A DNA stretch of 30,498 bases from positions 1 to 30,498 of the forward strand of contig CAYFTY010000001.1 of the NCBI GenBank assembly GCA_964346045.1. Direction: 5' to 3'. Shown here one piece after another: positions 679 to 30,498 of this stretch. The stretch comes from an uncultured Bradymonadales bacterium. Lineage in GTDB: Bacteria; Myxococcota_A; Bradymonadia; Bradymonadales; Bradymonadaceae. Below the pieces are notes generated by a model. It did no database searches. It had not been told where the DNA came from and saw nothing but the letters and a program-made list of their open reading frames with translations. Both the position numbers and the translations under genes were made by a program. Every line of letters starts with the position of its first letter. The stretch's first letter is position 1.

Positions 679-722
679 CCTGAAGGTTCTTTTCCGCGGG
701 CGAGAGTCCACGAGGTATGTGC

Positions 723-2538: not shown

Positions 2539-3222
2539 GTGATAAAACTCAACGATTTCAACAAGAGCGAAAATAACGAAGCTCTCGAGACGTTCGAACA
2601 AACGGCACTCGTATATCTGGACGAGCTCTACGCAACCGGCTTGAAATATACGAAGAACGAAAAAGATGCTGAGGATCTCGTCCAGGAGACCTTCCTGAAA
2701 GCATTTTCGAATTTCCACCGATTCGAGCAGGGAACCAATTGCCGGGCGTGGCTCTTCACGATTTTGACGAATACGTTCATCAATCGATTCCGTCGGAAAA
2801 AGAAAGAGCGGGAAATTCTGAACGCAGACGATCTGCGGCCCATCCGCCAGAACTTCCATAACGTCGAGAAAGCCGATTTCTACAAAGACCCTGAAAAGGG
2901 CGCGCTTTTCAAGACCTTCAGCACCGATTTAAAGCGGGCGCTCGAGCAACTTCCAGAAGAATTCCGGATGGTTGTGATACTCGCCGATCTCAACGACTTC
3001 TCGTACAAAGAGATCGCGCACATCCTCGACTGTCCGGTCGGAACGGTGATGAGCCGACTCTTCCGCGGACGGAAGATGATGCGGAAGCATCTGGTTCATA
3101 TCGCGTACGAGCGTGGCATCATTCGAGATAAGTCCCCGTTTTTGCACGAAGAGAGCAATCGGACCCGGCGCTCGGTGCGTCGCCAGAAGCTCGACGAGCT
3201 CGAAGAGCGCAAAGCGAGTTGA
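2539..3222 (+). CDS. ECF (group 4) RNA polymerase sigma factor, SigR/SigH-like, with a charged C-terminal extension
   Basis: Region 2 DAEDLVQETFLKAF...RAWLFTILTNTFIN; region 4 FSYKEIAHILDCPVGTVMSRLFRGR; AGGAG RBS before GTG. Confidence 0.93.
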   Translation: MIKLNDFNKSENNEALETFEQTALVYLDELYATGLKYTKNEKDAEDLVQETFLKAFSNFHRFEQGTNCRAWLFTILTNTFINRFRRKKKEREILNADDLRPIRQNFHNVEKADFYKDPEKGALFKTFSTDLKRALEQLPEEFRMVVILADLNDFSYKEIAHILDCPVGTVMSRLFRGRKMMRKHLVHIAYERGIIRDKSPFLHEESNRTRRSVRRQKLDELEERKAS

Positions 3223-3225
3223 CTC

Positions 3226-3345
3226 TCACGGGGTCGGGGGCATCCCGACCTCGTCGACCACCGACATGAACATCTGTGCGATCGCTGCATGGCCGGCAAC
3301 ATTCGGGTGTATGCAGGTCTGTTCTGGTTGCCTCCCTTCAAGATG
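3226..3345 (-). pseudogene. 3' remnant of an SGNH/GDSL hydrolase gene
   Basis: The minus frame reads ...QTCIHPNVAGHAAIAQMFMSVVDEVGMPPTP*, resembling SGNH block V (xxHPxxxGHxxIA). An in-frame TGA lies just upstream (3346-3348) and no start codon precedes the motif. Confidence 0.55.
3228..3254. terminator. GC-rich hairpin downstream of the ECF gene, no U-tract
   Basis: ACGGGGTCGGG-ggcat-CCCGACCTCGT, 11-bp stem with one G-U pair. Confidence 0.45.
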
Positions 3346-3607
3346 TCATCCGTGCGAGCACCCCACTCCGAGCAGCTTCTGAAATCACCGCTCTCGAGCT
3401 TTCCGGCCTTGCCTGTAAAGGGATCGGCTGACTTCCAGATGCGTTCCAGAGCGCGTACCTTTTCATACCTTTGCCTACATTCACTTTGGTCTGAACTCCG
3501 GCACCTTAGACGAATCTTCACTCCATTCCAATATCTGATGGAATAAGCCCCCCCCTGGCAAGCGAGCGCTCGTGTGAGTGTGTGAGAAATCGTGTTACCG
3601 TCATGTC

Positions 3608-4009
3608 ATGAGGGTTCTTTTTCTCATTTCGTTTGTGTTGATGACGTCCGGGTGCGCATCGACCGCTTATATCTACACCGAGCCCTCGGGCGCCGAGGTG
3701 CGTGTCGACGACAAGGTTCTGGGTTCTACGCCTCTCGCTTACACCGACCTCGTCTACGTCTGGACGACTCGCGAGGTGACGGTGGCGAGCAAGGGATATC
3801 GGACACGAACGTTCGAATTGCGTTCGGACGGCCCGCTTTCTCCGGTCTATGCCACCCTCTGTCTCTGCACTGCAGGCCTTTTTCTCCCGGCGCTCTTCGT
3901 CTCGGAATTCGAACACGAACTCTATGTCGTTCCGATGGAGTCACTCGAGCCCCCGGACGAAGAACCGCTGATCATTCGTGACCCTGAAGGAATCGACTTT
4001 CGACCTTGA
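3608..4009 (+). CDS. PEGA-domain lipoprotein
   Basis: Signal peptide with lipobox TSG-C from ATG 3608; PEGA-like YTEPSGAEVRVDDKVLGSTPL; stop overlaps the next start (TTGA). Confidence 0.75.
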   Translation: MRVLFLISFVLMTSGCASTAYIYTEPSGAEVRVDDKVLGSTPLAYTDLVYVWTTREVTVASKGYRTRTFELRSDGPLSPVYATLCLCTAGLFLPALFVSEFEHELYVVPMESLEPPDEEPLIIRDPEGIDFRP

Positions 4010-5520
4010 ACACTCCCGACGAAATCACTGAATGCAAGCATCGACCGGCCTGCGATGGCTGCCCCCTCTTCGAAGCGGGCTCGGGCGGGGTTGCGATCAA
4101 AACCGAAGCACTACGAGGGTATTTTCGGTCCTATCGAGATCGCTTCGGATGGCGTGCGCCGCAGGTCGAGTCCCATTCGGCTGACCTGGGCTATCGAAAC
4201 CGGGCGCGCATGGTCGTCGAAGGCGCGCGACTCGGTTTTTATCAGGCTGGCTCGCGGAACTTCATCGAAATCGAACGCTGCCTCGTTCACACGCCACATC
4301 TCGAGGGAGTACTCGATCATATCCGAGACTTCGAGGGGTTGAGTGAGTGCCGGTTTGTCGATGTGAGATCGTCGCGAGAAACGCAGAGCGCCCTCGTGTC
4401 GCTCGTGCGGGCCGACGAACCAGCCGATGCCTGGATTGACCAGGCGATCGAGCATTTTGCAGGGGTGCCAGGCCTCTCGTTGGCGCTCGAGCTACTGGCA
4501 GATTCGGACGCCATCGGGACGGGAGTCTCTCGTGTGCTCCATGGCGACGATTCGTTATCGATGCGTGTGAGCGGCTTCGACTTCGAAGTCACGAATGATG
4601 CATTTTTTCAGGTCAATATCGATGTTCTCGAAGCAATTCACCGCCGGATCCGACCCTTTCTCGAGTCGGTCGAGGATCTCGTCGATGCCTATTGTGGCGT
4701 CGGTGTTCATGGAATCGCCGTATCCCCAGAGAACGCGCGAATTCGAGGATTCGATGCCGTCCCTCAGGCGGTGGAGTTGGCGCAGCGCAACGCGGATCGG
4801 GCAGGGCGTGAGGCAACCTACCTCGCTTCGAGCGACAGCGATTTTATGCTGGATGGTGAGACCTCGGACGCCCTGATCGTGAATCCTGCACGCTCTGGAC
4901 TATCGCAGCCCTTCGTTAAGCGTATTTCTGGACATCCTTTCGAGCGAATCGTCTACGTTTCGTGCGATCCGCCGAGCTTTCTTCGAGACGCCGAACGGCT
5001 CGTGACCGCCGGCTGGCGCCCCGTCGAATGGGCCGCATTCGACATGATGCCACGTACCGAGCATGTCGAGCTGCTGGGGCTTTTCGAGCGCATCGAAGAA
5101 GCATCGTACTCGATCATCGATACGTATTCGGGTGTCGAGGGTCCGCCGGCAGACGACACCTGGTTTGCGATCGTCGAAGGGGAGTTGCCTCGTCGCGCCA
5201 CGCTTCCGCGTGCGATGGGTACGATCACGCGACTCAGGCGATGCGGGCCAGACTCGGTCGTCGAGATTCAAACCCAGGGGATCGAAGTCGATGCACTGCG
5301 CGAAACATTGCGGGCCTGGCAGCATCCTATCGTAGGCGACCGGCACTTCGGCCACGAATCGACTGCACATCGCTATGAGCGCGAATTCGCGCTTGATCGA
5401 CCTGCGCTGCACCGTTATCGCTCGGGAGATCGATACGAGGTGGTTTCTGCGCATCTCGTGTCGATGTTCAAATTGCCCGCAAAGGTTCTCAACCCGTTGG
5501 GCCGAGGTGACGATGTTTGA
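4006..5520 (+). CDS. rlmD: RlmD/RlmC-like m5U RNA methyltransferase (no TRAM domain) with a degenerate RluA-like C-terminal domain
   Basis: Fe-S motif CKHRPACDGC...RCLVH; YRNRAR; AFFQVN; SAM motif DAYCGVG; catalytic YVSCDP; tail carries WFAIVEG, HPIVGDRHFG, RPALH. Confidence 0.85.
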   Translation: MNTPDEITECKHRPACDGCPLFEAGSGGVAIKTEALRGYFRSYRDRFGWRAPQVESHSADLGYRNRARMVVEGARLGFYQAGSRNFIEIERCLVHTPHLEGVLDHIRDFEGLSECRFVDVRSSRETQSALVSLVRADEPADAWIDQAIEHFAGVPGLSLALELLADSDAIGTGVSRVLHGDDSLSMRVSGFDFEVTNDAFFQVNIDVLEAIHRRIRPFLESVEDLVDAYCGVGVHGIAVSPENARIRGFDAVPQAVELAQRNADRAGREATYLASSDSDFMLDGETSDALIVNPARSGLSQPFVKRISGHPFERIVYVSCDPPSFLRDAERLVTAGWRPVEWAAFDMMPRTEHVELLGLFERIEEASYSIIDTYSGVEGPPADDTWFAIVEGELPRRATLPRAMGTITRLRRCGPDSVVEIQTQGIEVDALRETLRAWQHPIVGDRHFGHESTAHRYEREFALDRPALHRYRSGDRYEVVSAHLVSMFKLPAKVLNPLGRGDDV

Positions 5521-5914
5521 GCAAGATTTCCTCGACGAGATTCGCCAGGAGCTCGAAGCTCAGAAAAAAGAGCTGGTTCGAAGGCAGAAGGAGACCTCTT
5601 CGGAAATCCTGGAGATCCGAGATTCGGATGCCGGTATTCTGGATTCGATCGACACGACGATGCTCGAGCAGACCACATCGACCATGCTCAAACTCAAAGA
5701 GCGTGAGCTCGAAAAATTGCGAGCGATCAACGCGGCGCTCGCCAGACTCGACAAAGGCGAGTATGGCTATTGCGTCGAGACCGGCGAGCCGATTGCCGGA
5801 GCGCGCCTGAGGGCGAATCCCCTCGCGCGACTTACTCTCGAGGCCCAGAAAGACCTCGAGGAAGAAGAGAGACGCAGGAATTTTCGCCCCGGTCTCTTGG
5901 ATGATATGGAGTAG
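5513..5914 (+). CDS. dksA: DksA/TraR-family RNA polymerase-binding factor, zinc-independent one-Cys type
   Basis: Coiled coil with DSIDTT tip; AALARLDKGEYGYCVETGEPIAGARLRANPLARLTLEAQ. ATG 5513 follows a GAGGT RBS and overlaps the rlmD stop. Confidence 0.88.
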   Translation: MFEQDFLDEIRQELEAQKKELVRRQKETSSEILEIRDSDAGILDSIDTTMLEQTTSTMLKLKERELEKLRAINAALARLDKGEYGYCVETGEPIAGARLRANPLARLTLEAQKDLEEEERRRNFRPGLLDDME

Positions 5915-5946
5915 AAGCAACCACACGGTAGAGTGCGAGTGAACAC

Positions 5947-7215
5947 ATGAAAACGATGGATCCCAACAGCAAAGTGCGCTGCTCATTCTGCGGAAAAGAA
6001 GCGCGCGACGTTCGACGGCTCATTGCCGGTCCCAAGGTGCATATTTGCGACGAATGTGTGTCGCTCTGCCGCGAGATCATCGAAGAGGATCGCCAGCGAG
6101 AGCCCGAGCGCTCGCAGGGCATCGAAGAGATGCGACCCAAGGTGATCAAAGCGTTTCTCGACGAACATGTCGTCGGCCAGGAGCGGGCCAAGCGCGCGCT
6201 GGCTGTGGCCGTCTACAATCACTACAAGCGGATCAAAGCCGACGAGATCGAAGACGACCTCGAAGAAAAGATCGATCCCGAAGACGAAGTCGAGTTGACC
6301 AAGGGCAATATCCTGCTCATTGGTCCCACCGGAAGCGGCAAGACCTTGATGGCGCAGACGCTCGCCAAGATGCTCGATGTTCCCTTTACGATCGCGGACG
6401 CGACGAGCCTTACGGAAGCTGGCTACGTCGGCGAAGACGTCGAAAACGTTATCAAAAGCCTCTGGCTGGCCGCCGATCGCGACGTGGAGCGAGCGAGCCG
6501 TGGCATCGTTTGTGTCGACGAGATCGACAAGCTCGGTCGCAAGGGCGACAGCGCATCATCGACACGAGACGTCGGAGGTGAAGGCGTGCAGCAGGCGCTG
6601 CTCAAAATGGTCGAGTCGTCGAATGTGATGATCACCCCCGAGGGGTCGCGAAACCGTCCCCAACAGGAATTCATCCAGGTCGACACGACCAATATCCTCT
6701 TCATCTGCTGTGGGTCGTTTCAGGGACTCACCGAGATCATCGGTCGACGCATCGGCGAGAGCCGCATGGGTTTTGGAGCCGACGTCACCCAAAAGACCGA
6801 TATGTCGAACGCGATTCTGCACCACGTGCGCCCCAGCGATCTGAATAAATTCGGCCTGATCCCGGAATTCGTCGGACGTTTTCCCGTGATCGTGACCTTC
6901 GACGAACTCAGCGAAGACATGTTGGTCGACATCCTCTGGCAGCCCAAAAATAGCCTCGTGAAGCAGTATCAGAAGCTTTTCGAACTCGAGGGTGTCAAGC
7001 TGCGGCTCAATGAAGAGGCGATGCGGGCGATGGTGCGCGAAGCTATCAAGAGAAAGACCGGAGCCCGTGGACTTCGAGCGATTATCGAAGAGGTGATGCT
7101 CGACATCATGTACGAGCTCCCCAGCCTCGATAACGTACGAGAATGTGTGATCACCGAGGATGTGGTCATGAAAAAGGAGAAGCCGATGCTCGTATACGAA
7201 AAGCAGTCGGCGTGA
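5947..7215 (+). CDS. clpX: ATP-dependent Clp protease ATP-binding subunit ClpX
   Basis: Zn-binding CSFCGK...ICDECVSLC; Walker A GPTGSGKT; pore loop GYVG; Walker B CVDEIDK; [10 protein letters not shown]; TGARGLRAI. Confidence 0.97.
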
Positions 7216-18285: not shown

Positions 18286-19260
18286 ATGAAGATAAAGATT
18301 CTCTTGATATTCGGGGCATGTCTGGCGCTCCTTGCGAGCCCCAGCGTGTTTGCGCAGGAAGAACCTGCCGAAGCAGCTGAAGACGCCGAGGCCACTGAGT
18401 CAGAGTCGACGGACGCCGCCGAGGCTGAGGCAGACTCGCAACCTTCCGACCAGGCCGAGGGTGAGGCGGCCGAAGGCGAAGAACCCGCTGAGGGTGCTGC
18501 CGCCGAAGAAGGCGAGGAGGCTGTGGCCGAGGGCGCCGCCGCGCAAGAGGGAGACGCCCCATCCGAAGAAGCCGTCGGTCCGGGAGGCCGTCCACTGCGC
18601 ACCGATTATCCGGGCACCGACGAATCACTTCGTTCGCGCATGGATACCGATCGCATCGAGGGGCTCGAAATCGATCCGAATCAGCCGCAGGAAGCCTACA
18701 CGATGCGGGTCAAAGAGCTCGAAACCAAGATCGATGACCTCAAAGAAAAGGTCTTCCAATCCAAAACCCGAATCGTTCTGCTGCGCGAGACGCTGCTCAG
18801 CGGCAACCTCGCCGGAGCTCGTGCGTCGATCGTCCATCGCTCGGAGCTCGGCTCGGCATTCAAATTGCGCCAGGCGACCTACAGCCTCGATGGAACCAAA
18901 GTCTTTGGCCAGGTCGACAATAACGGTTCACTCTCGGACAAGAATGTTTTTGAGGTCTACAACGGGGGAATCTCGCCCGGGAACCACACCCTCTCGGTGT
19001 CACTTCGCTATCAGGGAAGCGGCTACGGACTTTTCAGCTACTTCGACGGATACGAGTTCGACATTAAGTCCTCGTGCCCGTTCGAGGCAAAGGAAGGAAG
19101 GGTCGTTCAGGTGCGAGCCACCCCATTCGAAGCTGGCGATGCGACGACCTCCAAAGAACAACGGCCAAATTTCAAATGCGAGGTCAAGTACTTCGACAGC
19201 CGGCAAGACGACGTAGCGCCCGAGCAGGAAAAATCGGTTGCAGATGACGGCGAAGCTTGA
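18286..19260 (+). CDS. Uncharacterised secreted protein: acidic disordered linker, coiled coil, beta-rich C-terminal domain; first gene of the glt-like operon
   Basis: Signal peptide ending SVFA-QE; E/A-rich stretch; heptads YTMRVKELETKIDDLKEKV; alternating beta pattern with PGNHTLSVSLRYQG. Confidence 0.85.
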   Translation: MKIKILLIFGACLALLASPSVFAQEEPAEAAEDAEATESESTDAAEAEADSQPSDQAEGEAAEGEEPAEGAAAEEGEEAVAEGAAAQEGDAPSEEAVGPGGRPLRTDYPGTDESLRSRMDTDRIEGLEIDPNQPQEAYTMRVKELETKIDDLKEKVFQSKTRIVLLRETLLSGNLAGARASIVHRSELGSAFKLRQATYSLDGTKVFGQVDNNGSLSDKNVFEVYNGGISPGNHTLSVSLRYQGSGYGLFSYFDGYEFDIKSSCPFEAKEGRVVQVRATPFEAGDATTSKEQRPNFKCEVKYFDSRQDDVAPEQEKSVADDGEA

Positions 19261-19277
19261 GCCCGGAGCGGCGAAAC

Positions 19278-21545
19278 ATGCGATTTTGCAAAAAGCACAT
19301 CATCAGCGCCATCGCGGCTTCGACCGCACTTCTTGTATGGGCGACGAGCGCGCACTCCCAGGAGCTCGCGCAGGCCGAAGCTGAAATTCAAGAGGTCTCG
19401 CAGCAGGTGAGCAGACTCGAAAACGAGTTTCTCAAACCGGCCGTGCTGGCATCACGCTACAAAACCGAGGCCCGCTTCAACGACGCCAAGGTCGCTTATT
19501 ATCTGGAGGATTATCACCGGGCAGCCGTCCTCTTCGTCGATATCGTCCAGAAAGAAAATCAGAGCTTTGGCAGCTACCGCGAGGCGCTTTACCTGCTGGG
19601 TGACTCTCTCGCTCGCGTTCGAAATTATCAGGGCGCTCGAAACTATTTTCGCCAGATTCTCGAGCTCGGCTCAGGTCTCTACTTTCAGGAGGCTGCTTCT
19701 CGCTACCTGGAAATCTCCTTTGAGAGCCGCAATTTCGATGGGGTCGAAGATGTGTTGAACCGTGTTCAGCGCTCGGGCCAGATGAGTGCAGGCCTTCATT
19801 ATATTTCAGGTAAGGCGCTCTACCGGCAGGATCGTTATCCCGAAGCGCGGGCTGAATTTCAACGAGCCGCGTCCGATCCCGAGTATCGTTTGATGGCCGA
19901 GTACTTTCGGGGAGTCGTACTCGCCACCGAAGGTAAGCTCGATGAGGCACGCAGTGTCTATGCAGGCATCACGAACGACGCCGCGGTAACGAGCGAACGT
20001 GACCAGGAAATCGTGAATCTCGCGTTCGTCGCGCGCGGCAGGCTGGCGTACGAAAAGGCCGATTATGACACTGCGATCGACATGTACAGTCGTATCCCGC
20101 GGTTCAGCGAACACTTCGACCAGGCACTCTGGGAAATGACGTGGACGCTCATTGCAAAGGAAATGTTTCGCGAAGCGCGACGGAACGTCGAAATTCTGCT
20201 TTTCTCGGACCCCGACCCCGAGTTCGTCGCTCAGGCGCGGCTGCTCAAGGCCGACCTCTCAGTGCGACTCAATCAATATGAGCTGGCCGAAGAGGATTTC
20301 CAGGACGTGTTGACCGAGTTTCAACCGGTCAAAGACGAGATGGATACATTCGTGGCCGATCGCGGAGATTTGCGTTCGTTCTTCACGGGAATGGTCGAGC
20401 AGGACCTCGAAGGGAATAGCCAGGCAGGTCTGCCCCCGCTGGTCGAAAAGTGGCTCGACAGTGATGCGACGATTCGCAACGCGTCCCGTTTGATCCGCGA
20501 TGTTCGCGATGTGAACGCCGAGATCGACGAAACGCGCCAGGTGCTTGCCGAGGTCAATGCACGGCTCGACTCGACCACGCGCGTGCAGTCGTTTCCCGAA
20601 CTGGCCGAAGGAATGGCGCTTGGCATCGAAGCCGAAAATCGCCTCACGAAAGCGCGTCGATTGATCCTCAATGCCCACTATCAAGAGGTCAGTAGCCGCT
20701 TGAGCACAGCACAAGAACAGAGGTGGGAATCACTATCTGCCGAGCTCGATCGGCTCGAGAAGGCATACGCAGAAATCCCCAAGGATCGAGAGGCCATCGC
20801 CGAACGAGACCGGGCGGTTCACGCGGAGTACGCGCGACTTCAGAGAGAGCTCGATCGTGTCGATGACCAACTGGATGGCCAGCGGGCCATCCTGGCAGGG
20901 GTCGACGTCTACATTCAGAACGAATACGGCGAGCCGCTGACCGAAGACCAGAAGACGCAGATTGATGCATTGAAATCCGAGGTCCGCGAGACTCTGAAGG
21001 AGCTCGAGGAAGTACGGTCAGCTTTGCAACTCCAACTCAAAATTGCTCGAGACGAGGTGGGAGTTGGCGACCCGGTGTCGGTCGCCGAACGAGACCTGCG
21101 CGAGCGGTACGCTGCACGCATGGACGAAGCCTCTTCGCTCCTGCAGTCTGCCGGGCGTCTCGAACGCGCTCAATCCCTGCGCCAACGTATCCAGCCGCTC
21201 GAAAGACGGCTTCAGGATTATTTCACCCGCATGGAATCATTGGTCAATGACAAGGTGAGTGAGATTCGTGATGACGTACGCAATGAAGAGAAAATGCTCG
21301 CGCAGCACAAAGATTCGCTCGACGAACTCATCTATGCGTCTCAAGACGGAGCAGGCGTGCTGGCATACATCAATTTCATGAGAGCTCGTGCGGACTTCAA
21401 CGCGATGATCTTGAGAGCCGAAGTCGGGCTTGTGGACGTGAAGTGGCAAAAGAAAGAAGAGATGTCGAATACGATTAACCAACTCTTCGAAAATCGCACG
21501 CGTCAACTCAGGCAACTGCAACAATCCTTTGAGGAGGTGCGGTAA
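19278..21545 (+). CDS. Secreted TPR and coiled-coil protein, tentatively GltC-like
   Basis: Signal peptide ending SAHS-QE; multiple TPR motifs (EALYLLGDSL, HYISGKALYRQDRYPEA); long C-terminal heptad helices; ATG 19278 after GGAG. Confidence 0.8.
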   Translation: MRFCKKHIISAIAASTALLVWATSAHSQELAQAEAEIQEVSQQVSRLENEFLKPAVLASRYKTEARFNDAKVAYYLEDYHRAAVLFVDIVQKENQSFGSYREALYLLGDSLARVRNYQGARNYFRQILELGSGLYFQEAASRYLEISFESRNFDGVEDVLNRVQRSGQMSAGLHYISGKALYRQDRYPEARAEFQRAASDPEYRLMAEYFRGVVLATEGKLDEARSVYAGITNDAAVTSERDQEIVNLAFVARGRLAYEKADYDTAIDMYSRIPRFSEHFDQALWEMTWTLIAKEMFREARRNVEILLFSDPDPEFVAQARLLKADLSVRLNQYELAEEDFQDVLTEFQPVKDEMDTFVADRGDLRSFFTGMVEQDLEGNSQAGLPPLVEKWLDSDATIRNASRLIRDVRDVNAEIDETRQVLAEVNARLDSTTRVQSFPELAEGMALGIEAENRLTKARRLILNAHYQEVSSRLSTAQEQRWESLSAELDRLEKAYAEIPKDREAIAERDRAVHAEYARLQRELDRVDDQLDGQRAILAGVDVYIQNEYGEPLTEDQKTQIDALKSEVRETLKELEEVRSALQLQLKIARDEVGVGDPVSVAERDLRERYAARMDEASSLLQSAGRLERAQSLRQRIQPLERRLQDYFTRMESLVNDKVSEIRDDVRNEEKMLAQHKDSLDELIYASQDGAGVLAYINFMRARADFNAMILRAEVGLVDVKWQKKEEMSNTINQLFENRTRQLRQLQQSFEEVR

Positions 21546-24500
21546 TGAGGATCCGTGAGCTCAGATGGATTGTGATGGCGGCCGGTCTGCTCCTGGCAGC
21601 GCCGAATGCGATCGCGCAGGAAAATCCCGAAGATTTCGACGTCGAGGTCGAAGACGATACCGATCTCGGCAAAGAAGAGGCCGAGCGGGGTCGAGATCTC
21701 GGCGGCGAGGGGATGAAAGACGAAGAGAAGAAAACCGTTCGCGATGTCGAGGTGAAGCTTCCCGAGAATGCCGATCCGAAATTTATCGAAGCCTTCAAGG
21801 CTTACCAGGAGTCGGTGACGCGCTATGCGGCCGAGAACAAAGACTTTCGAGATAGCATCGAACGCGTCGTGGACGCCGAGTACAAACGGCGCGTCGCACA
21901 GGTGAATGAACGCTTCGATTCCAAGATTCGCGCGAACGAGGCGGTCGAGCGGCAGTATCGCGTCGACGCTATCGCATCCTTTGAGGGCTTCCTCGAGCGC
22001 TATCCGAATGAGCCCCGGTATACGCCCGACGCAATGTTCAGGTTGGCTGAACTCGAGTTCGAAAAAGCCAACGATGATTTCCTCGTCGCCGACGAAGAAT
22101 ATCAGGATCAGATGGCGCTCTACGAGGCAGGCAAAATCGCCGACCCTCCCGCGGACCCCGTGCGCGACTATGGGCGCACGATCGCACTCTTTCGACAGCT
22201 CATCGCAGACTGGCCCGACTACCGCCTGCTCGACGGCGCCTACTATCTACTCGCCTATTGCGAGCTGCAGATGGGGAACGAGCAGGAAGCGCGACGACTC
22301 TTTGCCGAGCTCATCGTTCAACGGCCGGAGAGCGAATTCATCCCCGAGGCATGGATTCGAATCGGTGAGTTTCACTTTGATTACAACGAACTCGAGCTCG
22401 CCAAGCAGGCGTATCTCGAGGCCATGAAGTTCCCCGATAGTCAGTTCTACGACAAGGCGCTGTACAAGCTCGCGTGGACCTATTACCGGCAGGATAATTT
22501 TGACCAGGCGATCAAAGAGTTCAAACGACTCATTGAATACAGCGACAAGCTCGAGCGCGAAACCGGTCAATCAGGTTCGGTGCTGCGTGCCGAAGCTGTT
22601 CAATACATGGCGATCTCGCTCGCCGAAGAAGACTGGAACCTCGACGGGATCAAAGACGACGACTTCGGGCTGATTCGTGCCAAGCGCTATCTCAAGGGTG
22701 AAAAGCCATACGAGCGCGAAGTGCTCGCACAACTCGGTGAATATCTCTTCGAGAATACCCGCTACCGCGAATCCGTAAATATCTACCGGTATATGCTGGC
22801 AAAGTATGCCTTTGACCGGAAGAACCCGGAGACGCACGAGCAGATCATCCTCGCGCTCCTGCGTGAAGGCGATATGGACGCTGCGTTTGCCGAACGGAGC
22901 AAGCTCAACGAGATCTACGGCCCGGCCAGCGACTGGTATGCGTATCAGCAGAAGATGGGGAATGCCGAGGCAATCCGCTATTCGACGGATATGGTCAAGG
23001 ACAACCTGATCCAGTCGGCCACCTGGTATCACGCCGAGGCGCAGAAGAAGCGAAATGAGGCCGAGGTTCGGGAAGACCCCGAAATCATGTCGGTCGCGCA
23101 GGACCAGTATGCGGTCGCAGCAAGCGGCTATAAGAGCTTTCTCGAGCGCTATCCGAACGACAAAGATTTCTATCAATGGAACTTTTACTACGCGGAATGC
23201 CTCTATTACTCCGGTCAGTACATGCCGGCATATGAGCAATACAGGGTCGTTCGCGAGATGGACGTGAAGAATAACGAGTTTCAGGAGACCTCGGGTTTCA
23301 ATGCTGTCAAGGCTCTCGAACTCAATATCGCGACCTTGATTGATCAGGGGCAGCTGCCTTCGAAGGTACTTCCGAATCTCGATGAGGCTCGCGACACAGC
23401 GAGAGCTCAGGAAAGTGCCAGCGGCGAAGAAGCCGAAGCCGAGGGGCGTCGAGACGACCAGAAGCGCGTCGTCGAGGCCGAGCCGGTCCCTGCTGTGGTC
23501 ATGCAGTACGTCACCGCGATGGATCGCTACGTTGTACTGGGCCTCGAGAATGAAGAGCAGAAAAATCTGGACGCTCGATTCGCATTCCAGTCGGCCAAGG
23601 TATTCTACGACTTCAAAGATTATCCTACGGCCCGCAAACGATTCGAGTGGATCGTTCAAAAGTACCCTGAAGACGAGGTCGCGTATCTCGCTGGTAGTTT
23701 GATTCTGGAGACGTATCGGGAAGAAAAAGACTACACCGCTCTCGCGGCTGCGGCCGAGAAGTTGAGCAACGTCATCCAGGGTGAGCAGGCCGAGGCGATT
23801 CGCGAGGAAGTCCGACAGTTCAAGCTCGGGGCCCTCTTCAAATCGGCCGAGCAGCTCTTTGCCGAAAAGAAGTACGAGCAGGCTGCCGAGGAGTATCAGC
23901 GATTGCTCCAGGAAGATCCGGATAATGAATTTGCAGCCAAAGCTCTGAACAACGCTGCGGTCGCCTACGAGAATGTCAGCCGCTTCGAATCGGCGATGAA
24001 ACTCTACGAGCGCGTTTACAAAGAACACCCGGACGATCCACTGGCATCGTACGCACTCTTCCGAATGGCCGTGAATCAGGAACGGTTTTTCGATTACGAC
24101 AACGCCATCCAGAATTACGAGCTCTTCTACGATAAGTATCGCAATAAAGAGCAATCGGAACTCGACCAAGCTGGCGTGACCTTCCCGCTCAAAGAAAAGC
24201 GCGGCGACTCCCTGCGAAGTGCGGCGGTATTGCGGGAGAATCTGCAAGACTACGATGGCGCGGCACGCGCCTATGAACGATACGCCGAGACGTATCCAGA
24301 TAACGATCAGGCAGTAGCGGCCGCATGGCAGGCCGTCCTCGCCTGGGAAAAGGCCGGCGATGAGCGCAAGATGATTCGGGCCATCGACGAGTTCAATCAG
24401 ACCTACGGGAGCAATCCCGATCAGAATCTGAACTTTTTCAAAGGGCTGGACAAAAAGGCCGACTACTACGAGGGGCGCAATAGCACGCGGCGCGCCGACC

Positions 24501-25117
24501 GAATCTACGAGGAGATCCTTCAGGAGTATGAGACGCGCGGGATCGCTCCGGGCAGCCCCGAAGCATTCTACGCGGCTAAATCCAGGTTCATGCTCGTCGA
24601 GCGCGAGTTCGAAGACTGGCGGGACATCAAGATCAAAGGCAGCATCAATCGACAGAGAAAGCGGCTCGAGACGAAAATCGAGGGTCAGAAAGAGCTGACA
24701 GCAAAGTATGAGTCAGTGTGGGAATACCAGAGTCTCGAATGGACGATGGCATCGAGCTTCCGCATCGGAAGCCTCTTCCAGCAATTCGCGATCTCGCTCT
24801 ACGACGTTCCGATTCCCTTCGATGATATGAGTGAGGAGTACGAGATCTATCGAACCCAGCTCGAAGATATTGCCATTCCGCTCGAGGACGAGGCGATCGT
24901 TCGCTACGAAAAGACGATCCAGAAAGCGCGCGACGCGAAGATCGTCAATAAGTGGACCAAGAGGACGCTCGAAGAGCTCAACAAATACAAGCCTGCAGAA
25001 TACCCGCTCTTCAAAGAGAAGCGCCGGGAAGTCGAGTATCGTCCCGTCTCGGGACAGGACTTCGTGTCTCCCGCATCTCTGAAGCCGGCCCCTGCAACCG
25101 ATGGAGACGATTCGTGA
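21545..25117 (+). CDS. gltD: GltD/AgmU-like large periplasmic TPR protein
   Basis: 1190 aa; signal peptide; two TPR clusters (DKALYKLAWTYY, KALNNAAVAYE); C-terminal PLEDEAIVRYEKTIQKA...NKWT...KPAEYP; position upstream of gltE/gltF. Confidence 0.8.
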   Translation: MRIRELRWIVMAAGLLLAAPNAIAQENPEDFDVEVEDDTDLGKEEAERGRDLGGEGMKDEEKKTVRDVEVKLPENADPKFIEAFKAYQESVTRYAAENKDFRDSIERVVDAEYKRRVAQVNERFDSKIRANEAVERQYRVDAIASFEGFLERYPNEPRYTPDAMFRLAELEFEKANDDFLVADEEYQDQMALYEAGKIADPPADPVRDYGRTIALFRQLIADWPDYRLLDGAYYLLAYCELQMGNEQEARRLFAELIVQRPESEFIPEAWIRIGEFHFDYNELELAKQAYLEAMKFPDSQFYDKALYKLAWTYYRQDNFDQAIKEFKRLIEYSDKLERETGQSGSVLRAEAVQYMAISLAEEDWNLDGIKDDDFGLIRAKRYLKGEKPYEREVLAQLGEYLFENTRYRESVNIYRYMLAKYAFDRKNPETHEQIILALLREGDMDAAFAERSKLNEIYGPASDWYAYQQKMGNAEAIRYSTDMVKDNLIQSATWYHAEAQKKRNEAEVREDPEIMSVAQDQYAVAASGYKSFLERYPNDKDFYQWNFYYAECLYYSGQYMPAYEQYRVVREMDVKNNEFQETSGFNAVKALELNIATLIDQGQLPSKVLPNLDEARDTARAQESASGEEAEAEGRRDDQKRVVEAEPVPAVVMQYVTAMDRYVVLGLENEEQKNLDARFAFQSAKVFYDFKDYPTARKRFEWIVQKYPEDEVAYLAGSLILETYREEKDYTALAAAAEKLSNVIQGEQAEAIREEVRQFKLGALFKSAEQLFAEKKYEQAAEEYQRLLQEDPDNEFAAKALNNAAVAYENVSRFESAMKLYERVYKEHPDDPLASYALFRMAVNQERFFDYDNAIQNYELFYDKYRNKEQSELDQAGVTFPLKEKRGDSLRSAAVLRENLQDYDGAARAYERYAETYPDNDQAVAAAWQAVLAWEKAGDERKMIRAIDEFNQTYGSNPDQNLNFFKGLDKKADYYEGRNSTRRADRIYEEILQEYETRGIAPGSPEAFYAAKSRFMLVEREFEDWRDIKIKGSINRQRKRLETKIEGQKELTAKYESVWEYQSLEWTMASSFRIGSLFQQFAISLYDVPIPFDDMSEEYEIYRTQLEDIAIPLEDEAIVRYEKTIQKARDAKIVNKWTKRTLEELNKYKPAEYPLFKEKRREVEYRPVSGQDFVSPASLKPAPATDGDDS

Positions 25118-26427
25118 GAGACCTACGTGTCATCTGGATTCTAGCTCTCTCGTTGGGGCTCGCGCTGGCCGGGTGTTCTTCGTCGCCGACCAAGAAGGAC
25201 GGTACGCCAGTCGAAGAGGACGAAAGTGCCGAAGTCGCGGCCGATGATGGCAGTACGTCGATGGGCGAGATGCAGGAGGTCGAAGAAATGCCCACGGCGG
25301 ACTCGCTCGAAGACAGCGAAGTCACAGAAGAACGTGGAGAGATCGACGCAGGGGTGGAGTCGTTTATCCGCGATGCGATTTCCATAGCCGAAGACGGGAA
25401 TCTCGATCAGGCAGCCAGTGCGCTCGAAGATCTGATTGAAAGCCCCAGGGGTGGGTTCCTCGCAGCGTATAACCTGGGCGTTGTTCGTGAGCGACAGGGG
25501 CGATACGAAACGGCCGCCAAACGCTATTTCTACTCCCTCCAACGAAACCCCAATTTCAGTCCTGCTCTCTCGAACCTGGTTCGACTCTATCTGCGCAGCG
25601 GTCGCATCGATGATGCCGATCGTCTGGCGCAGCGTTTCGTGAATCAGAAACCTGACAATGTCGAGCATCGTGCAGTCGCGCTTTTGGTGCCGCTGGCGAA
25701 GGGGCGTTATGAGGACGTCGTCTTGCAGGCGCGCGAAGTTCTAAAGAAAAACGAGAAGAGCGTCGATGCGATGTATGCGATGGCGCAGGCCAATTTCGAG
25801 CTCGAACGCTTCGAGCTGGCCCGGGCCATCATCGAACGCGCCGTGGATCTCGCCCCCGAGCGAGCGGATCTCTTCAATTTTTATGGGATGATCCAACTCA
25901 AGCTCGACAACAATCCGGGAGCCATCGCCAATTTTCAGAAGGCGATCGAATTACGCAGTCAATTTCCCGAGGCGCGAAATAATCTCGGTGTGCTCTATCA
26001 CGAGGCGCGTGACTTCGATGCGGCTGCGCGGCAGTTCCTGGAAGCGGTCAAGAGCTATCCGGACTATAAAGAGGCATTCTTGAATCTCGGAAATTCGTAT
26101 AAGGGCCTGAAGCGATACAAAGATGCTGAGCTGGCCTTTAAGCGAGCGCTAAAGGTCGACGAGAGCTATCCAGAAGCGCATTTCAATCTGGGAGTCCTGT
26201 ATCTGGACAGCGAGGTTCCAGGCATCGACCCGATCGCACGACTGCAGAAATCGGTCGATGAATTCAATGAGTACAAGCGTCATCAAAAGGATCTTCCCAA
26301 GGATGATCCTGCCGATAAGTATATTGCCGAGGCGAAGAAGGCCATCGAAGTCGAACGCCAGAAACAAGAAATGATGCGTCAGTCGCAAATGGGCGCCGAA
26401 GAAACGGACGAAACTCCAACGGAATAG
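25114..26427 (+). CDS. gltE: GltE/AglT-like TPR lipoprotein
   Basis: True start GTG 25114 overlaps the gltD stop (GTGA); lipobox LAG-C; consecutive TPRs (ARNNLGVLY, AFLNLGNSY, AHFNLGVLY). Confidence 0.8.
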   Translation: MRDLRVIWILALSLGLALAGCSSSPTKKDGTPVEEDESAEVAADDGSTSMGEMQEVEEMPTADSLEDSEVTEERGEIDAGVESFIRDAISIAEDGNLDQAASALEDLIESPRGGFLAAYNLGVVRERQGRYETAAKRYFYSLQRNPNFSPALSNLVRLYLRSGRIDDADRLAQRFVNQKPDNVEHRAVALLVPLAKGRYEDVVLQAREVLKKNEKSVDAMYAMAQANFELERFELARAIIERAVDLAPERADLFNFYGMIQLKLDNNPGAIANFQKAIELRSQFPEARNNLGVLYHEARDFDAAARQFLEAVKSYPDYKEAFLNLGNSYKGLKRYKDAELAFKRALKVDESYPEAHFNLGVLYLDSEVPGIDPIARLQKSVDEFNEYKRHQKDLPKDDPADKYIAEAKKAIEVERQKQEMMRQSQMGAEETDETPTE

Positions 26428-26466
26428 TTGCCGGATGCCCCGGACTGACCTTAAGGTACTAAGAAG

Positions 26467-26739
26467 ATGCAGAACACGATGACCAAAAAGCAGACGAAAA
26501 TTGCAGTGGTCGCTCTCGCGGCTGCAGCATTGTTGCTGGGTAGCCAGGCTGTCGAGACCGATGAAGTCCACGCTCAACAGGGCGTGATCAATCTGGACGA
26601 GACGGTCATCAAAGGTCGCATTCAGAAACCCGAGGCTTTTTACATCCTGCAGCATGCCAATTTGAAGTACGAAAAGCTGACTCCAAAACAGTCTTTCCTC
26701 CCGGAACTCGAGAAGAGCGTCGAAGAGGATCCCTTTTAG
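26467..26739 (+). CDS. gltF: GltF/CglF-like small secreted protein
   Basis: 90 aa; signal peptide; INLDETVIKGRIQKPEAFYIL...SFLPELEKSV motif; directly after gltE. Confidence 0.75.
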   Translation: MQNTMTKKQTKIAVVALAAAALLLGSQAVETDEVHAQQGVINLDETVIKGRIQKPEAFYILQHANLKYEKLTPKQSFLPELEKSVEEDPF

Positions 26740-26757
26740 CGCATTCAAAAATGCGCT
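26738..26757. repeat. Perfect 8-bp inverted repeat at the gltF stop
   Basis: AGCGCATT-caaa-AATGCGCT. Confidence 0.7.
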
Positions 26758-26786
26758 TGGCCGCTTCGCCACGTTTATGCTATAGA
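26757..26786 (+). promoter_or_regulatory. Putative internal promoter for aglRQS
   Basis: TTGGCC, 18-nt spacer, TATAGA with an extended -10 TG at 26778-26779, in a 198-nt gap. Confidence 0.5.
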
Positions 26787-26937
26787 CGTTGGACTTCGAA
26801 GAGGTCGCAAAAACTGAGGCGACATAGGGTCGCAGAGCTTTGTGTACTCGGATTTTGGAAGCCACGTGCTCACGACGAGTCATGTGATCATAGAACGAAG
26901 CTAAAGTGTTTTTTAACGCGTACGGAGGTAACTCGAT

Positions 26938-27576
26938 ATGGGCGCAATAGCCGAAGCGTTTCGCACAGGCGGTGTGTGGATGTATCTCATCCTCGCCACG
27001 TCCATCTTCGCGATTGGTATCGCGATTGAGCGGTTCATTTTCTTGTTTTTCAAATACAACATCAACGCCGAAGCGTTTTACGCTCAGGTGCAGAAGCTGG
27101 TGATGGCTAATAACGTGGACCGCGCCATCAAGCTCTGCAATGCGGCACCGTCGGCAGCATTGCCGAAGGTCGTCAAAGCAGGCCTGACGCGTGCGAACAA
27201 GGGCGAGGTGGAGATCCAGAACGCAGTCGAAGAGGCTACGCTCGAGGTCGTCCCTCGTATCCAGAAGCGCACGACCGCGCTGGCGTCGCTCGCGAATATC
27301 GCGACGCTTCTCGGACTCCTCGGTACCATTATTGGTCTGATCGAGGCCTTCGAGGCACTTGAGAAAGCGACACCTGAGAACCGACAGCGGCTTCTTGCCC
27401 GCGGTATTGCCCTCGCGATGAACACGACGGCATTCGGACTCATCGTCGCTATTCCGACGCTGATTGCACACCTGATTCTTTCGGGACAGACCAAGCGTCT
27501 GCTCGACGAGATCGATCTGTACAGCGTCAAGCTCGAGAACTTGCTCATCAGCCGCGGTAAAGGCGGTAACGAGTAA
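26938..27576 (+). CDS. aglR: MotA/TolQ/ExbB-family ion channel subunit, AglR-like
   Basis: Three TM segments; NIATLLGLLGTIIGLI and TTAFGLIVAIPT motifs; GGAGG RBS. Confidence 0.9.
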   Translation: MGAIAEAFRTGGVWMYLILATSIFAIGIAIERFIFLFFKYNINAEAFYAQVQKLVMANNVDRAIKLCNAAPSAALPKVVKAGLTRANKGEVEIQNAVEEATLEVVPRIQKRTTALASLANIATLLGLLGTIIGLIEAFEALEKATPENRQRLLARGIALAMNTTAFGLIVAIPTLIAHLILSGQTKRLLDEIDLYSVKLENLLISRGKGGNE

Positions 27577-27694
27577 TCCTGTCGTTTTGACCCGTCGTGG
27601 TCTGTCCGCGTCAAAGGAATGACCTGGTGCTTCGCCCTGCTGGGGCGAGGCCCGGTTCTACCCTTTCGGACGACCCACGATTGAGGAGGATCGC

Positions 27695-28360
27695 ATGGCG
27701 CGACAACGCCGAGGCGCAAAAGAAGAGACACCAGAGCTGAATCTCGCGCCCATCATGAACATGGTGGTCATTTTGATTCCCCTGCTTCTGTTGTCCGTGG
27801 TGTTCCTGCAGGTCGGTGTAATTAACATCACCGCACCCAAGCTTTCGATTTCGAATAAGTCGGAACCCACACCGCCGCCCGAAGAACAACCTTTGAACTT
27901 GACCGTCGCGATTGGAGTCAAAGGCTTCAACATTGCGGCGACTGGAGCCAATCTCCCTGAGATGCCTGGCTGTCCCGTCCCCGGGCCGACGATCTGCCTG
28001 GAGGATAATAGCGTCGACGTGGGTGAATCCTTCAAAGACGCGCGTGAGAAACTCACGTCGGGACAGGCTGGAGCGGGTGAGGCGGCGCTCGACAAAGCGA
28101 TGGGCGCGTACAACTGGGTCGAGCTCTACAACACGCTCGCGAAGATCAAAAAAGAGTACCCCGACGAGACTGTGGTGAAGCTTTCGGCCGATCCCGACAT
28201 TCCGTACGCAGCAGTGGTACGTGTGATGGATGTCGCTCGTTTCAAGCTCACGAAGGACAAGTACGACAAATCGAGCGAACTCTGGACTGCAGAGTATGCG
28301 AAGTCCGGTGCTGAGATCGAAGTTCTCTTCCCGGACCCTGTGCTCGCCGTTGTTCAGTAA
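27695..28360 (+). CDS. aglQ: ExbD/TolR-family subunit, AglQ-like, with Asn22 in place of the conserved Asp
   Basis: ELNLAPIMNMVVILIPLLL single TM; periplasmic LSADPDIPYAAVVRVMD motif; GAGGAGG RBS. Confidence 0.82.
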   Translation: MARQRRGAKEETPELNLAPIMNMVVILIPLLLLSVVFLQVGVINITAPKLSISNKSEPTPPPEEQPLNLTVAIGVKGFNIAATGANLPEMPGCPVPGPTICLEDNSVDVGESFKDAREKLTSGQAGAGEAALDKAMGAYNWVELYNTLAKIKKEYPDETVVKLSADPDIPYAAVVRVMDVARFKLTKDKYDKSSELWTAEYAKSGAEIEVLFPDPVLAVVQ

Positions 28361-28384
28361 TTTGGCGAAATAAGGAGGAAGCCC

Positions 28385-28978
28385 ATGTCAGAGACAGGAG
28401 CTTTCAGCGAAGCAGAAGAACAATTCCTCGCCGAACAGCGAGAGCGCGACAAGAAGCGTGACAAGCGCCTCAAGAAGCGAGATACCGACGATGGGGGGCC
28501 GGTGAACATCAACTCGTTGATGGACATCATGGTCATCATCCTCGTCTTCCTTCTAAAGAACTACGGGGACGAGCCGATCAAGGTGGTCGGTAAAGACCTC
28601 AAGGCGCCGCAGAGTTCGACGCAGCTCTCGCCCGAGGACATGACGACTATCACCGTTTCGCAGAGTGCGATCCTCGTGAATAACAAGAGGGCGGTCGGCT
28701 TGAAGAACGGGACGGTCGATAAGAGCCAGAAAAAGGGTGGCGAGGCTAGCCTCAATATTCAGCCGCTCTTCGATGAGCTCACCGAAGCGATCACGCGCAA
28801 AAAGCGTGAGATGAAATTGATCGGACAGGAATATCAGCCCACGGCGACGATCATTGCCGATCAGTCGACGCCCTACAGACTCCTCACCGAGGTGATGTAC
28901 ACGGCGGGCCAGGCCGAGCTCAATCAGTTCAAATTCGCGGTGGTACGGACCGATCGCAAGACCTTTGCGATCGATTAA
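28385..28978 (+). CDS. aglS: ExbD/TolR-family subunit, AglS-like, Asp47 retained
   Basis: NINSLMDIMVIILVFLLKNYG single TM; IIADQSTPYRLLTEVMYTAGQA...FAVV; AAGGAGG RBS. Confidence 0.82.
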   Translation: MSETGAFSEAEEQFLAEQRERDKKRDKRLKKRDTDDGGPVNINSLMDIMVIILVFLLKNYGDEPIKVVGKDLKAPQSSTQLSPEDMTTITVSQSAILVNNKRAVGLKNGTVDKSQKKGGEASLNIQPLFDELTEAITRKKREMKLIGQEYQPTATIIADQSTPYRLLTEVMYTAGQAELNQFKFAVVRTDRKTFAID

Positions 28979-29005
28979 AGCGATACTCTCATCGTGACGA
29001 TGTAT

Positions 29006-29043
29006 CGGGATGAAGAGCGCCACTCTTCATCCCGTTTTTTTTT
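29006..29043 (+). terminator. Strong intrinsic terminator after aglS
   Basis: Perfect 12-bp stem CGGGATGAAGAG-cgcca-CTCTTCATCCCG followed by nine T. Confidence 0.92.
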
Positions 29044-29237
29044 GCCGCGGTTGTATAAAATTGAGCTTTGGGGCATCTTAAGGAATATAGGAACACCCAT
29101 GAGATCGTTCTTTGAATAGCGACGTTTGAACCACGGTCTATCTTTGTGCAGCATGAAGCATCTCGTGCTGGCGAATCGGCCGCTCAAGGTATCCAGACGC
29201 CGACGCTAATTCGGTGGTTGACGAAAAAGGGCCGTCC

Positions 29238-30498
29238 ATGTCGACGAAAAAGCAGCCCGCGAAACAGAAAATTCTTCGGATCGGACTTTTCCAGGATAAG
29301 AACTGTCTGGAAGAGCGGCTGATCCACTCGCGTAAGCCTGTGCACATCGGGCAGGATTTCACCGACAAGCGAAACACCTTCGTTGTGCCTGTGTCGAATA
29401 TGCCCAAGTCGTTCAATGTCTTTGACGTGAACAAAAAGGGGAAATTCGTCCTTCGATTCACCAGGGACATGTCCGGCCGCGTTTCCATGGCCGACGGCAA
29501 GGCGAAGAAACTCGGAGAGCTGGTCTCGGAAGGGAAGGCCAAAAAGGGAAGCAACGGGGTCTACGAAATCCCCATCGACATCCGCACGTTTGGCCGCGTC
29601 GCCTTCGGCAGAGCCGGAGACGAGGTCGCGCTACTCTTTCAGTTCGTCAAACCGCCACCCCCGCGGCCCAAGCCGGTGCTCCCAACGAGCATGCGTGCCG
29701 GGCTCATGTACGGGCTCCTGGGAGCTACCACTCTGGCGATCGCCACCGCCGTCTCGGGCGTTTTCCAAATCGGCTTTGTGGCGTTTTTGCTCAGTCGTGA
29801 TTGGCCCGAGCCCAAAGATCTCGAATACGAGATGCCCGACCGGTTCGTCTCAGTTCTCGTAGATAAAGAAAAAGAAGAGCCACCAAAGCCGGATCTAGAA
29901 GAGGAGACCGGCGAGGAAGTCGACGGACCTGGTGAGGAGGAGGCAGAAGCTGATCCTGCTCCGAAAGCCGAAGAACCTGAGCCCGATCCCGAGCCGAAGT
30001 CACAGACGCCCGAAGAGCGCGCTGCGGCCGAAGCCGAACGGAAGCGTCGGCTGGCCGAAGAAGTTCAGAATAAAACGATCCTCGGACAGATCGGTGCTGT
30101 GAGCTCCGAAGGAGGGTCTCTCGTCGACACGCTCTCGTCGGGAGCGGGAAAGACCTCGATGGAGGAGGCATTCGCAAACTCGCAGGGCGTCAAGACCGGA
30201 GTCGCGGGTGCCGAGAAGAGTGGGCTACGGACCAGCGGCGGCAAAGACGGTGATGGTAAAGGGAAGACCTTTGGCATCGGTGACCTCAAGGGCACAGCAG
30301 GCGCCAACAAAGCGAAAGCCGGCGTGAAGACCGGCTCGAAGACCGAAAAGAAAGTCAAGGTTCGTGTGAATCTGAAAACCCCCGAAAAAATGGTGGGAGG
30401 TACCCTGGATTCCAACTCGGTTTCGCGCGTGTTGAGACGCCGCTCCAAGCGCTTGCAGCGATGTTACGAGCGAGAAGTCAAAAAGAACCCTGGCGCAT
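29238..30498 (+). CDS. gltG: GltG/PglI-like TonB-type energy transducer, 3'-truncated by the window edge and missing from the ORF track
   Basis: Manual translation from ATG 29238 is open to the end: MSTKKQPAKQKILRIGLFQ..., hydrophobic TM segment, Pro/Glu-rich linker, Gly/Lys-rich region, then GTLDSNSVSRVLRRRSKRLQRCYEREVKKNPG (start of an AgmX/PglI-type C-terminal domain). Confidence 0.85.
   Translation, partial: MSTKKQPAKQKILRIGLFQDKNCLEERLIHSRKPVHIGQDFTDKRNTFVVPVSNMPKSFNVFDVNKKGKFVLRFTRDMSGRVSMADGKAKKLGELVSEGKAKKGSNGVYEIPIDIRTFGRVAFGRAGDEVALLFQFVKPPPPRPKPVLPTSMRAGLMYGLLGATTLAIATAVSGVFQIGFVAFLLSRDWPEPKDLEYEMPDRFVSVLVDKEKEEPPKPDLEEETGEEVDGPGEEEAEADPAPKAEEPEPDPEPKSQTPEERAAAEAERKRRLAEEVQNKTILGQIGAVSSEGGSLVDTLSSGAGKTSMEEAFANSQGVKTGVAGAEKSGLRTSGGKDGDGKGKTFGIGDLKGTAGANKAKAGVKTGSKTEKKVKVRVNLKTPEKMVGGTLDSNSVSRVLRRRSKRLQRCYEREVKKNPGA

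Follow-up and report, generated by a model that had tools for sequence, protein, structure and literature searches.

Machines built from Agl and Glt proteins come in several versions in Myxococcus xanthus. Agl-Glt, the gliding machinery (clusters G1, G2 and M1), and Agl-Nfs each act on a cognate polysaccharide, slime for the former and Exo for the latter (PMC3858216). In 2011 two further arrangements were described: a 'core complex' of GltC, GltD, GltE and GltG with AglRQS, encoded together at a single locus of Gamma- and Betaproteobacteria, Geobacter and Fibrobacter, and an M. xanthus paralogue cluster, G4 (MXAN_1919-1923), the function of which was stated to be unknown (Luciano 2011; PMC3169522). 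An insertion mutant of MXAN_1922 displays normal gliding (Luciano 2011 Fig S5; PMC3169522). [quoted passage not shown] Here we analyse a locus of nine genes lying at one end of a stretch of 30,498 nucleotides (the window), which is the entire contig C1 (CAYFTY010000001.1) of the metagenome-assembled genome (MAG) of an uncultured Bradymonadaceae bacterium (GCA_964346045.1; 1200 contigs, 5.54 Mb, 90.7% complete), with Microvenator marinus, Persicimonas caeni and Lujinxingia as nearest named relatives. This locus is the Bradymonadaceae orthologue of M. xanthus G4, in a fuller form that keeps its own motor, and it runs on, past the contig end, into genes for an OPX protein and a putative polysaccharide porin.

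The assignment to G4 follows from the agreement of a GltD tree, reciprocal best matches and gene order. Compared with the GltD paralogues of M. xanthus, the window protein (GltD'; primes mark copies of the G4 type) scores 606 bits with the G4 copy and 156, 132 and 43 bits with the others, while the reverse search with GltD gives 604 bits against 202 bits for the next protein, so that the two are reciprocal best matches. The earlier note on this DNA had proposed setting such phylogenies against the M. xanthus paralogues, and in a maximum-likelihood tree of GltD the window copy falls within a G4 clade of 22 rows (Shimodaira-Hasegawa-like approximate likelihood ratio test support, SH-aLRT, 100) that leaves out M. 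xanthus GltD (G1), NfsD (G3) and the G5 copy, as well as two further copies of the host itself, on contigs C171 and C63. In Myxococcus the genes succeed one another as mglB, mglA, p1, gltC', gltD', gltE', gltF', gltG', p10, a gene for a barrel of 420 amino acids (aa) and a gene for an OPX protein of 204 aa. The lengths of these open reading frames (ORFs) agree closely with those of MXAN_1919-1923 in Table S3 of Luciano 2011: 809 aa for GltC' and 1111 for GltD' in both sources, 99 aa read in the Myxococcus loci against 91 in the table for GltF', and 448 against 447 for GltG'. At the 3' end, the Myxococcus 204-aa protein matches the solved structure of WzaB, PDB 9N9A, at E 4.9e-111, and its neighbour, the barrel, is the counterpart of WzpB, MXAN_1916. 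Between the window locus and G4, GltC', D', E', F' and G' are orthologous and their order is unchanged; p1, p10, the barrel and the OPX protein are likewise shared, with protein identities ranging from about 24% (barrel) to 46% (p1). It differs in that aglR'Q'S' sit between gltF' and gltG', which is not the case in Myxococcaceae, and in that it is not preceded by mglBA, which was not seen 5' of the cluster in the window. In M. eversor and M. xanthus AM003, by contrast, the locus stands directly 3' of mglB-mglA, the polarity GTPase module (L133 5519-7447; L134 5530-7434).

Table 1. Features of the G4-type locus on contigs C1 (the window) and C690, followed by two other genes of the window. TPR, tetratricopeptide repeat; curated NCBIfam cut-offs are given in brackets after the scores.
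Feature	Location	Strand	Description	Family match
p1, lead gene	C1 18286..19260	+	signal peptide, acidic disordered stretch, helix 134-171, 8-strand beta-sandwich 178-304	none in Pfam or NCBIfam
GltC'	C1 19257..21545	+	secreted TPR and coiled-coil protein; G4-type GltC paralogue, counterpart of MXAN_1923	NF033756 gliding_GltC, 2.1e-14, 53 bits (450)
GltD'	C1 21545..25117	+	1190-aa TPR protein, orthologue of MXAN_1922	
GltE'	C1 25114..26427	+	TPR lipoprotein, lipobox LAGC; GTG start overlapping the gltD' stop	NF033758, 7.5e-28, 98 bits (225)
GltF'	C1 26467..26739	+	small secreted protein, 90 aa	NF033764 CglF, 5e-4, 20 bits (90)
AglR'	C1 26938..27576	+	MotA/TolQ/ExbB-type stator subunit	PF01618, 6.4e-27, 94 bits, above gathering score
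AglQ'	C1 27695..28360	+	ExbD/TolR-type, without the transmembrane Asp (Asn22)	PF02472, 2.8e-12, 47 bits, above gathering score
AglS'	C1 28385..28978	+	ExbD/TolR-type, with the transmembrane Asp (Asp47)	PF02472, 8.5e-10, 39 bits, above gathering score
Terminator-like hairpin	C1 29006..29044	+	12-bp stem and T run, between aglS' and gltG'	
GltG'	C1 29214..30498	+	first 428 codons of a 491-aa TonB-like transducer; gene cut by contig end	NF033760, 1.1e-23, 84 bits (650)
GltG', C terminus	C690 3166-2969	-	last 63 codons	TonB_C, 6.5e-5
p10	C690 2881-2279	-	200-aa helical protein	
Beta-barrel, WzpB-like	C690 2165-906	-	419 aa	PF10082, narrowly passed, 25 bits
Short OPX lipoprotein, WzaB-like	C690 890-288	-	200 aa, lipobox GGC	Poly_export and SLBB domains
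PolX/PHP gene	C1 16281-18077	-	just 5' of the cluster	
Lipoprotein with bacterial TSP3 repeats	C1 7536-9674		712 aa	TSP3_bac (Pfam)

The nine genes, all on the plus strand, fill positions 18286-30498 of the window, the last being open at the contig end. This is as the earlier note had it, and its overlapping junctions at 21545 and 25114 can likewise be read in the sequence (TAATG at 21543-21547, GTGA at 25114-25117). To be sure, these are no chance ORFs, since their order is kept in more than 60 other genomes. Family searches with Pfam and NCBIfam, the cut-offs of the latter being the curated M. xanthus equivalog values, bear out the names that it had given, with matches to GltC, GltE, CglF/GltF and GltG, once to MotA_ExbB and twice to ExbD, although every Glt score lies well under its cut-off (Table 1). 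The truncated GltG' is one such case; a full-length relative scores 143. GltF', the smallest of the set, is found at the same position in 72 of 80 related loci with a profile built here. What does not stand is the view of the first two genes as extras: GltC', syntenic with the 809-aa Myxococcus gene, is a core component, and p1 is a conserved member of the cluster, so that both are regular members of the G4 cluster type, Myxococcus included. The counterpart of p1 in Myxococcus is the gene directly 3' of mglA (MXAN_1925), for which the number MXAN_1924 is inferred, and the M. xanthus AM003 protein is 46% identical to it (E 4e-53). Nor is the locus peculiar to a poorly studied lineage, as had been supposed, being orthologous to G4 and having p1 in 302 of the 401 Myxococcota genomes searched, nearly always in one copy per genome. 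The predicted structure of p1 has a mean confidence (pLDDT, the predicted score of the local distance difference test) of 72.6, and fold searches of the PDB with the models of p1 and p10 gave no match at E <= 0.001, just beta-sandwiches and helical bundles of a generic kind. A 'dihydrolipoamide acetyltransferase' label was set aside as an automatic name, probably stemming from a low-complexity N-terminus; atlas look-ups gave Myxococcota clusters without names. Compared with the core complex of Luciano 2011, all seven core genes are present in one co-oriented locus, to which GltF', p1, p10 and the OPX/barrel pair are added. The 'additional gene' of the gammaproteobacterial core loci is probably not p1, because that gene is given no Myxococcales homologue (Luciano 2011).

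An outer-membrane barrel had been reported as missing from view, and this is a contig-end artefact, because contig C690 joins C1 in frame and carries both a barrel and an OPX gene. The end of C1 overlaps reversed C690 by 7 nucleotides, and the GltG' reading frame continues across the join, aligning residue for residue to relatives (11-417 from C1, 417-480 from C690). It could be argued that the join is wrong, through mis-binning in the MAG, and that the cluster truly ends at gltG in this organism. The overlap is short indeed, one other contig end shares the same 7 nucleotides by chance, and the assembly lies in 1200 pieces. However, beyond the continuity of the frame, the order gltG', p10, barrel, OPX is found on single contigs in every Bradymonadaceae locus that is long enough, three complete genomes among them, which makes a mistaken join very improbable. 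A case in point is the syntenic relative L002 (GltD identity 71%), where a 480-aa GltG is followed by proteins of 196, 421 and 203 aa, the last with Poly_export and SLBB domains.

The C690 OPX protein has WzaB of M. xanthus (PDB 9N9A; PMC12819527) as its best solved relative, at E 6.5e-37. As expected of class 3, this lipoprotein has a Poly_export and a single SLBB domain but no C-terminal membrane helix, and no Wza_C-type family was matched in the family search. Its gene begins 15 nucleotides 3' of that of the barrel, which, from its sequence and its position beside the OPX protein, is probably a polysaccharide porin of the WzpB type (24% identity to Myxococcus WzpB, E 8e-14). As in the WzaB-WzpB translocon, a short Poly_export/SLBB lipoprotein is thus paired with a barrel of about 420 aa. 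In WzaB the C-terminal Phe203-Phe204 binds the porin, and an Arg106-Arg107 motif binds the polysaccharide co-polymerase (PCP) WzcB (PMC12819527). The C690 protein ends in Pro-Phe, not Phe-Phe, and across loci the C terminus stays aromatic or hydrophobic; we return below to the twin-Arg motif, which it does not have. The product of the third gene, p10, aligns with that of its Myxococcus counterpart (MXAN_1917/1918) at E 3e-25. In its model three helices form a bundle, and two Cys as well as a disordered tail are conserved. The earlier note had held that barrel or adhesin genes just downstream would make this the canonical gliding locus. A barrel does lie just downstream, but the locus is not that of canonical gliding, because the barrel is of the WzpB type and paired with a WzaB-type OPX protein, and is not one of GltA/B/H/K.

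How widely this arrangement holds was followed by a scan with a GltD' alignment, which gave 80 species-level loci, annotated with twelve cluster proteins, among them those of Myxococcus, Corallococcus, Pyxidicoccus, Archangium, Anaeromyxobacter and a Nannocystaceae MAG. The common order is p1, C', D', E', F', (R', Q', S'), G', p10, barrel, OPX. Among the 61 species-level loci with gltG' and enough downstream sequence, a profile search places the p10/barrel/OPX trio directly 3' of gltG' in 51. These genomes are mutually related, and the counts therefore overstate independence, yet the pattern spans several classes of the phylum. Genome match lists tell a similar story: p10 is found in 267 of the 401 Myxococcota genomes, its tallies match those of p1 by family (both 0/25, 0/14, 0/11 and 0/8 in the same four families), and one contig often carries both genes, separated by 8-14 kb. 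In certain families the distance from p1 to p10 is about 22-24 kb, with p10 on the opposite strand (L139/L143; f16), and in others p1 is present without p10 (8/9 versus 2/9 in f3, 6/6 versus 2/6 in f27), which shows that the linkage has been broken several times. Neither the host MAG nor the complete genomes of P. caeni, M. marinus and Bradymonas sediminis contain any Poly_export gene other than the OPX gene of the cluster; M. xanthus has three, and p10 remains single-copy there despite three Wza/Wzp pairs. At the 3' side of the OPX gene in one 9.07-Mb Myxococcota genome (L050, G240; 1-4447), ORFs resembling glycosyltransferases and WecA were seen, as judged by N-terminal sequence. Polysaccharide synthesis genes may thus adjoin the G4 locus in some lineages.

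Adjacency might of course be an inherited order without any coupling, the Glt-type part being a Tol-Pal- or TonB-like system for another cargo or for envelope integrity. G4 has no assigned function (Luciano 2011), the trio is wholly absent 3' of gltG' in 10 of the 61 loci, p10 lies apart in the lineages just mentioned, and BPS export has been ascribed to WzcB, WzaB and WzpB alone (PMC12819527). We nevertheless regard such an uncoupled neighbourhood as unlikely. It has been kept across classes of the phylum, M. xanthus retains it even with the remaining BPS pathway about 1 Mb distant, and p10 was found nowhere but with the G4-type cluster. Moreover, gltG' and the trio are close-packed. Between them there is no strong terminator, nor any signal comparable to the strong terminator-like hairpin that follows aglS' (29006-29034, or 29006-29044 as in Table 1), and a hairpin with another stem sequence occupies the same site in Microvenator marinus (L052 11791-11824) and in L002 (17308-17345). 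Two transcription units are therefore predicted, the second of which would join gltG' to the exporter genes. On its sequence, the hairpin may either split the locus in this way or act as an attenuator.

The motor deserves separate consideration. The first proposal, of an Agl/Glt-like machine of the core type that brings its own TolQR-like motor in the one locus, is upheld. AglR' belongs to an AglR-type clade apart from TolQ/ExbB (tree support 100/99), is 57-96% identical to the in-cluster copies found elsewhere, and shows 47% identity to the corresponding subunit of M. xanthus M2 (MXAN_3003-3005) and 43% to that of AglRQS; the tree does not resolve whether M2 or AglRQS descends from an in-cluster motor. 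Such a motor is retained by most lineages; it is present in 39 of the 61 loci and in none of those of Myxococcaceae. Its two ExbD-like subunits differ at the transmembrane position: the residue of AglQ' is Asp in none of 44 in-cluster homologues (Asn in 37), whereas AglS' keeps its Asp in 46 of 46. The consequence is that the motor is asymmetric by design across the cluster type. This sets it apart from the gliding motor, where the equivalent Asp of AglQ (D28) is essential. A second AglR/Q/S-like set of the host, on contig C1107, again has Asn for the transmembrane Asp in its first ExbD-like protein.

As for gliding, it is worth asking whether the locus could be the gliding machine of Bradymonadales, with the in-cluster motor driving the Glt transducer and with adhesin and barrels supplied from elsewhere. 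Cultured Bradymonadales do glide (PMC7188933), and the locus has all parts of the core complex together with GltF and its own motor. A lipoprotein with TSP3 repeats is encoded 9 kb 5' of it, in which the earlier note had seen a possible von Willebrand factor A (vWA) adhesin with a metal-ion-dependent adhesion site (MIDAS) motif; the CglB family model gives no match to this 712-aa protein at E <= 1e-5, and Pfam gives TSP3_bac only. However, the mutant of the orthologous M. xanthus gltD' glides like the wild type, and in the view of Luciano 2011 the core by itself does not suffice for motility. In agreement with the Agl-Glt structural model (PMC11761067), the same families and the same chain from stator to GltG to GltD/E/F/C are predicted here, but GltA/B/H/K, GltI/J and CglB are lacking from the locus, the outer-membrane genes of which are limited to the polysaccharide porin and the OPX protein. 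CglB was not found in the host genome either, the best match in this 90.7% complete assembly scoring 33 bits where the cut-off is 200.

Genes closer to those of the gliding machinery are present elsewhere in the host. The locus is single as far as the window machine is concerned, as had been stated, but not for the genome, where at least three further Glt-type clusters were found outside it. The first, of the G1 type (C171/C162), codes for GltC (325 bits), GltD, GltE and a GltJ-like protein (141) with an N-terminal zinc ribbon, and its GltD is the reciprocal best match of M. xanthus GltD. The second (C63/C866) has two OMP_myx_plus barrels of the GltA/B type, GltC (178 bits), GltD, GltE and CglF (62 bits), while C538 carries a G5-type cluster and C189 a GltG of 203 bits. 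The genes on C171/C162, C63/C866 and C189 score far above those of the window on the gliding families. No end overlaps were found among these contigs (C171-C162, C63-C866 and others), and their pairing is therefore suggested by content. The search of the genome for Glt barrels and GltJ, called for at the outset, has thus found barrels of the GltA/B type and a GltJ-like gene on other contigs and none in the locus. Taken together, this makes a gliding role for the window locus quite improbable, and the least likely of the roles that the earlier note had considered, whereas its companion suggestion, that of a paralogue probably doing a job other than canonical gliding, holds.

We propose instead that the locus is a G4 orthologue with its motor, built in the manner of Agl-Glt, and that the machine acts on a polysaccharide through the OPX/barrel translocon; we would put the probability of this joint reading at roughly 0.6. 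The G4 machine more likely serves export or handling of a sugar polymer than gliding. Modelled on the Agl-Glt structure (PMC11761067), AglR', AglQ' and AglS' would form an inner-membrane stator using the proton gradient, only AglS' keeping the transmembrane Asp, and would act on the TonB-like GltG'. GltG' would reach a periplasmic TPR scaffold made of GltF', GltD' and GltE' and then GltC', perhaps with p1. At the outer membrane, the class-3 OPX/beta-barrel translocon and p10 would take the place of the GltA/B/H/K-CglB adhesin platform. The cargo would be a secreted polysaccharide resembling BPS, which the machine might gate, position or pull on in the way that Agl-Nfs deals with Exo, the polymer of the spore coat, while gliding itself would be driven by the other Glt clusters of the host. 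Agl-Nfs with Exo (ExoA/ExoB) is the functional model here, a Glt paralogue working on a polysaccharide exported by a Wza/Wzp pair (PMC3858216). The likeness has its bounds, for Nfs, unlike the window locus, has barrels of the GltA/B type and a borrowed AglRQS, and its genes are not beside exoA/B.

Several points weigh against this proposal. The coupling to polysaccharide export is suggested by gene neighbourhood and precedent, and ten loci, as we have seen, do without the trio. The window-locus OPX protein has Gln-Asn in place of the twin Arg that binds WzcB, and its barrel partner is, on sequence, a candidate for a Wzp-type porin of 18 strands. For the predicted complex of GltC' (35-762) with p10 (26-200), the scores were 0.00, 0.41 and 0.00 (mark 0.32), which is evidence neither way. 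The rest of the M. xanthus BPS pathway lies about 1 Mb off, and published accounts of BPS export do without Glt-like parts (PMC7310880; PMC12819527). In the literature searched, subscription journals being outside the search, no BPS-type defect is reported for G4 mutants. Finally, Glt and Nfs have been argued to act after export, not in export (Wartel 2013).

A bolder version can be put forward only tentatively, and we hold it to be possible at rather less than even odds. The G4 type would be a proton-driven, TonB-like accessory of class-3 OPX/barrel secretion, acting by way of GltG', the TPR scaffold and p10 to open the Wzp/Wza translocon, position it or draw polymer through it; a locus joining motor and exporter, and not a gliding machine, would perhaps be near the ancestral Glt of Myxococcota, and the 'orphan' wzaB/wzpB pair would be the tail of that locus. 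In the same literature, MXAN_1917-1921, 1923 and 1924 are named nowhere save in the tables of Luciano 2011, and a word search of the papers on OPX proteins and BPS found Glt never mentioned in connection with wzaB or wzpB. Likewise, the link between G4 and an exporter receives no mention in the literature searched, and it suggests a function that can be tested. At the 5' border of the cluster in the window, the PolX/PHP gene is inverted with respect to its counterpart in L002, the closest syntenic relative (4904-6619, plus strand), which points to a local rearrangement there.

For the window alone, the outcome is mostly a correction: the locus is a commonplace representative of a paralogue family already known, truncated by the end of the contig. 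A single-locus core complex and G4 were both described in 2011 (Luciano 2011), and the interest lies in the linkage between G4 and the exporter, which can be tested in M. xanthus, an existing model organism. Two questions meet at this locus. The Glt/Agl paralogues G4, G5 and M2 have been without an assigned function since 2011, and in work on class-3 OPX proteins wzaB of M. xanthus passes for an orphan-like gene, far from its pathway. The comparison made here shows wzpB/wzaB to form the conserved 3' terminus of G4 loci in much of Myxococcota. If our proposal is true, G4 would provide a third example of the rule that each Glt-type machine has its own polysaccharide, and it would suggest an energised control of an outer-membrane polysaccharide porin.

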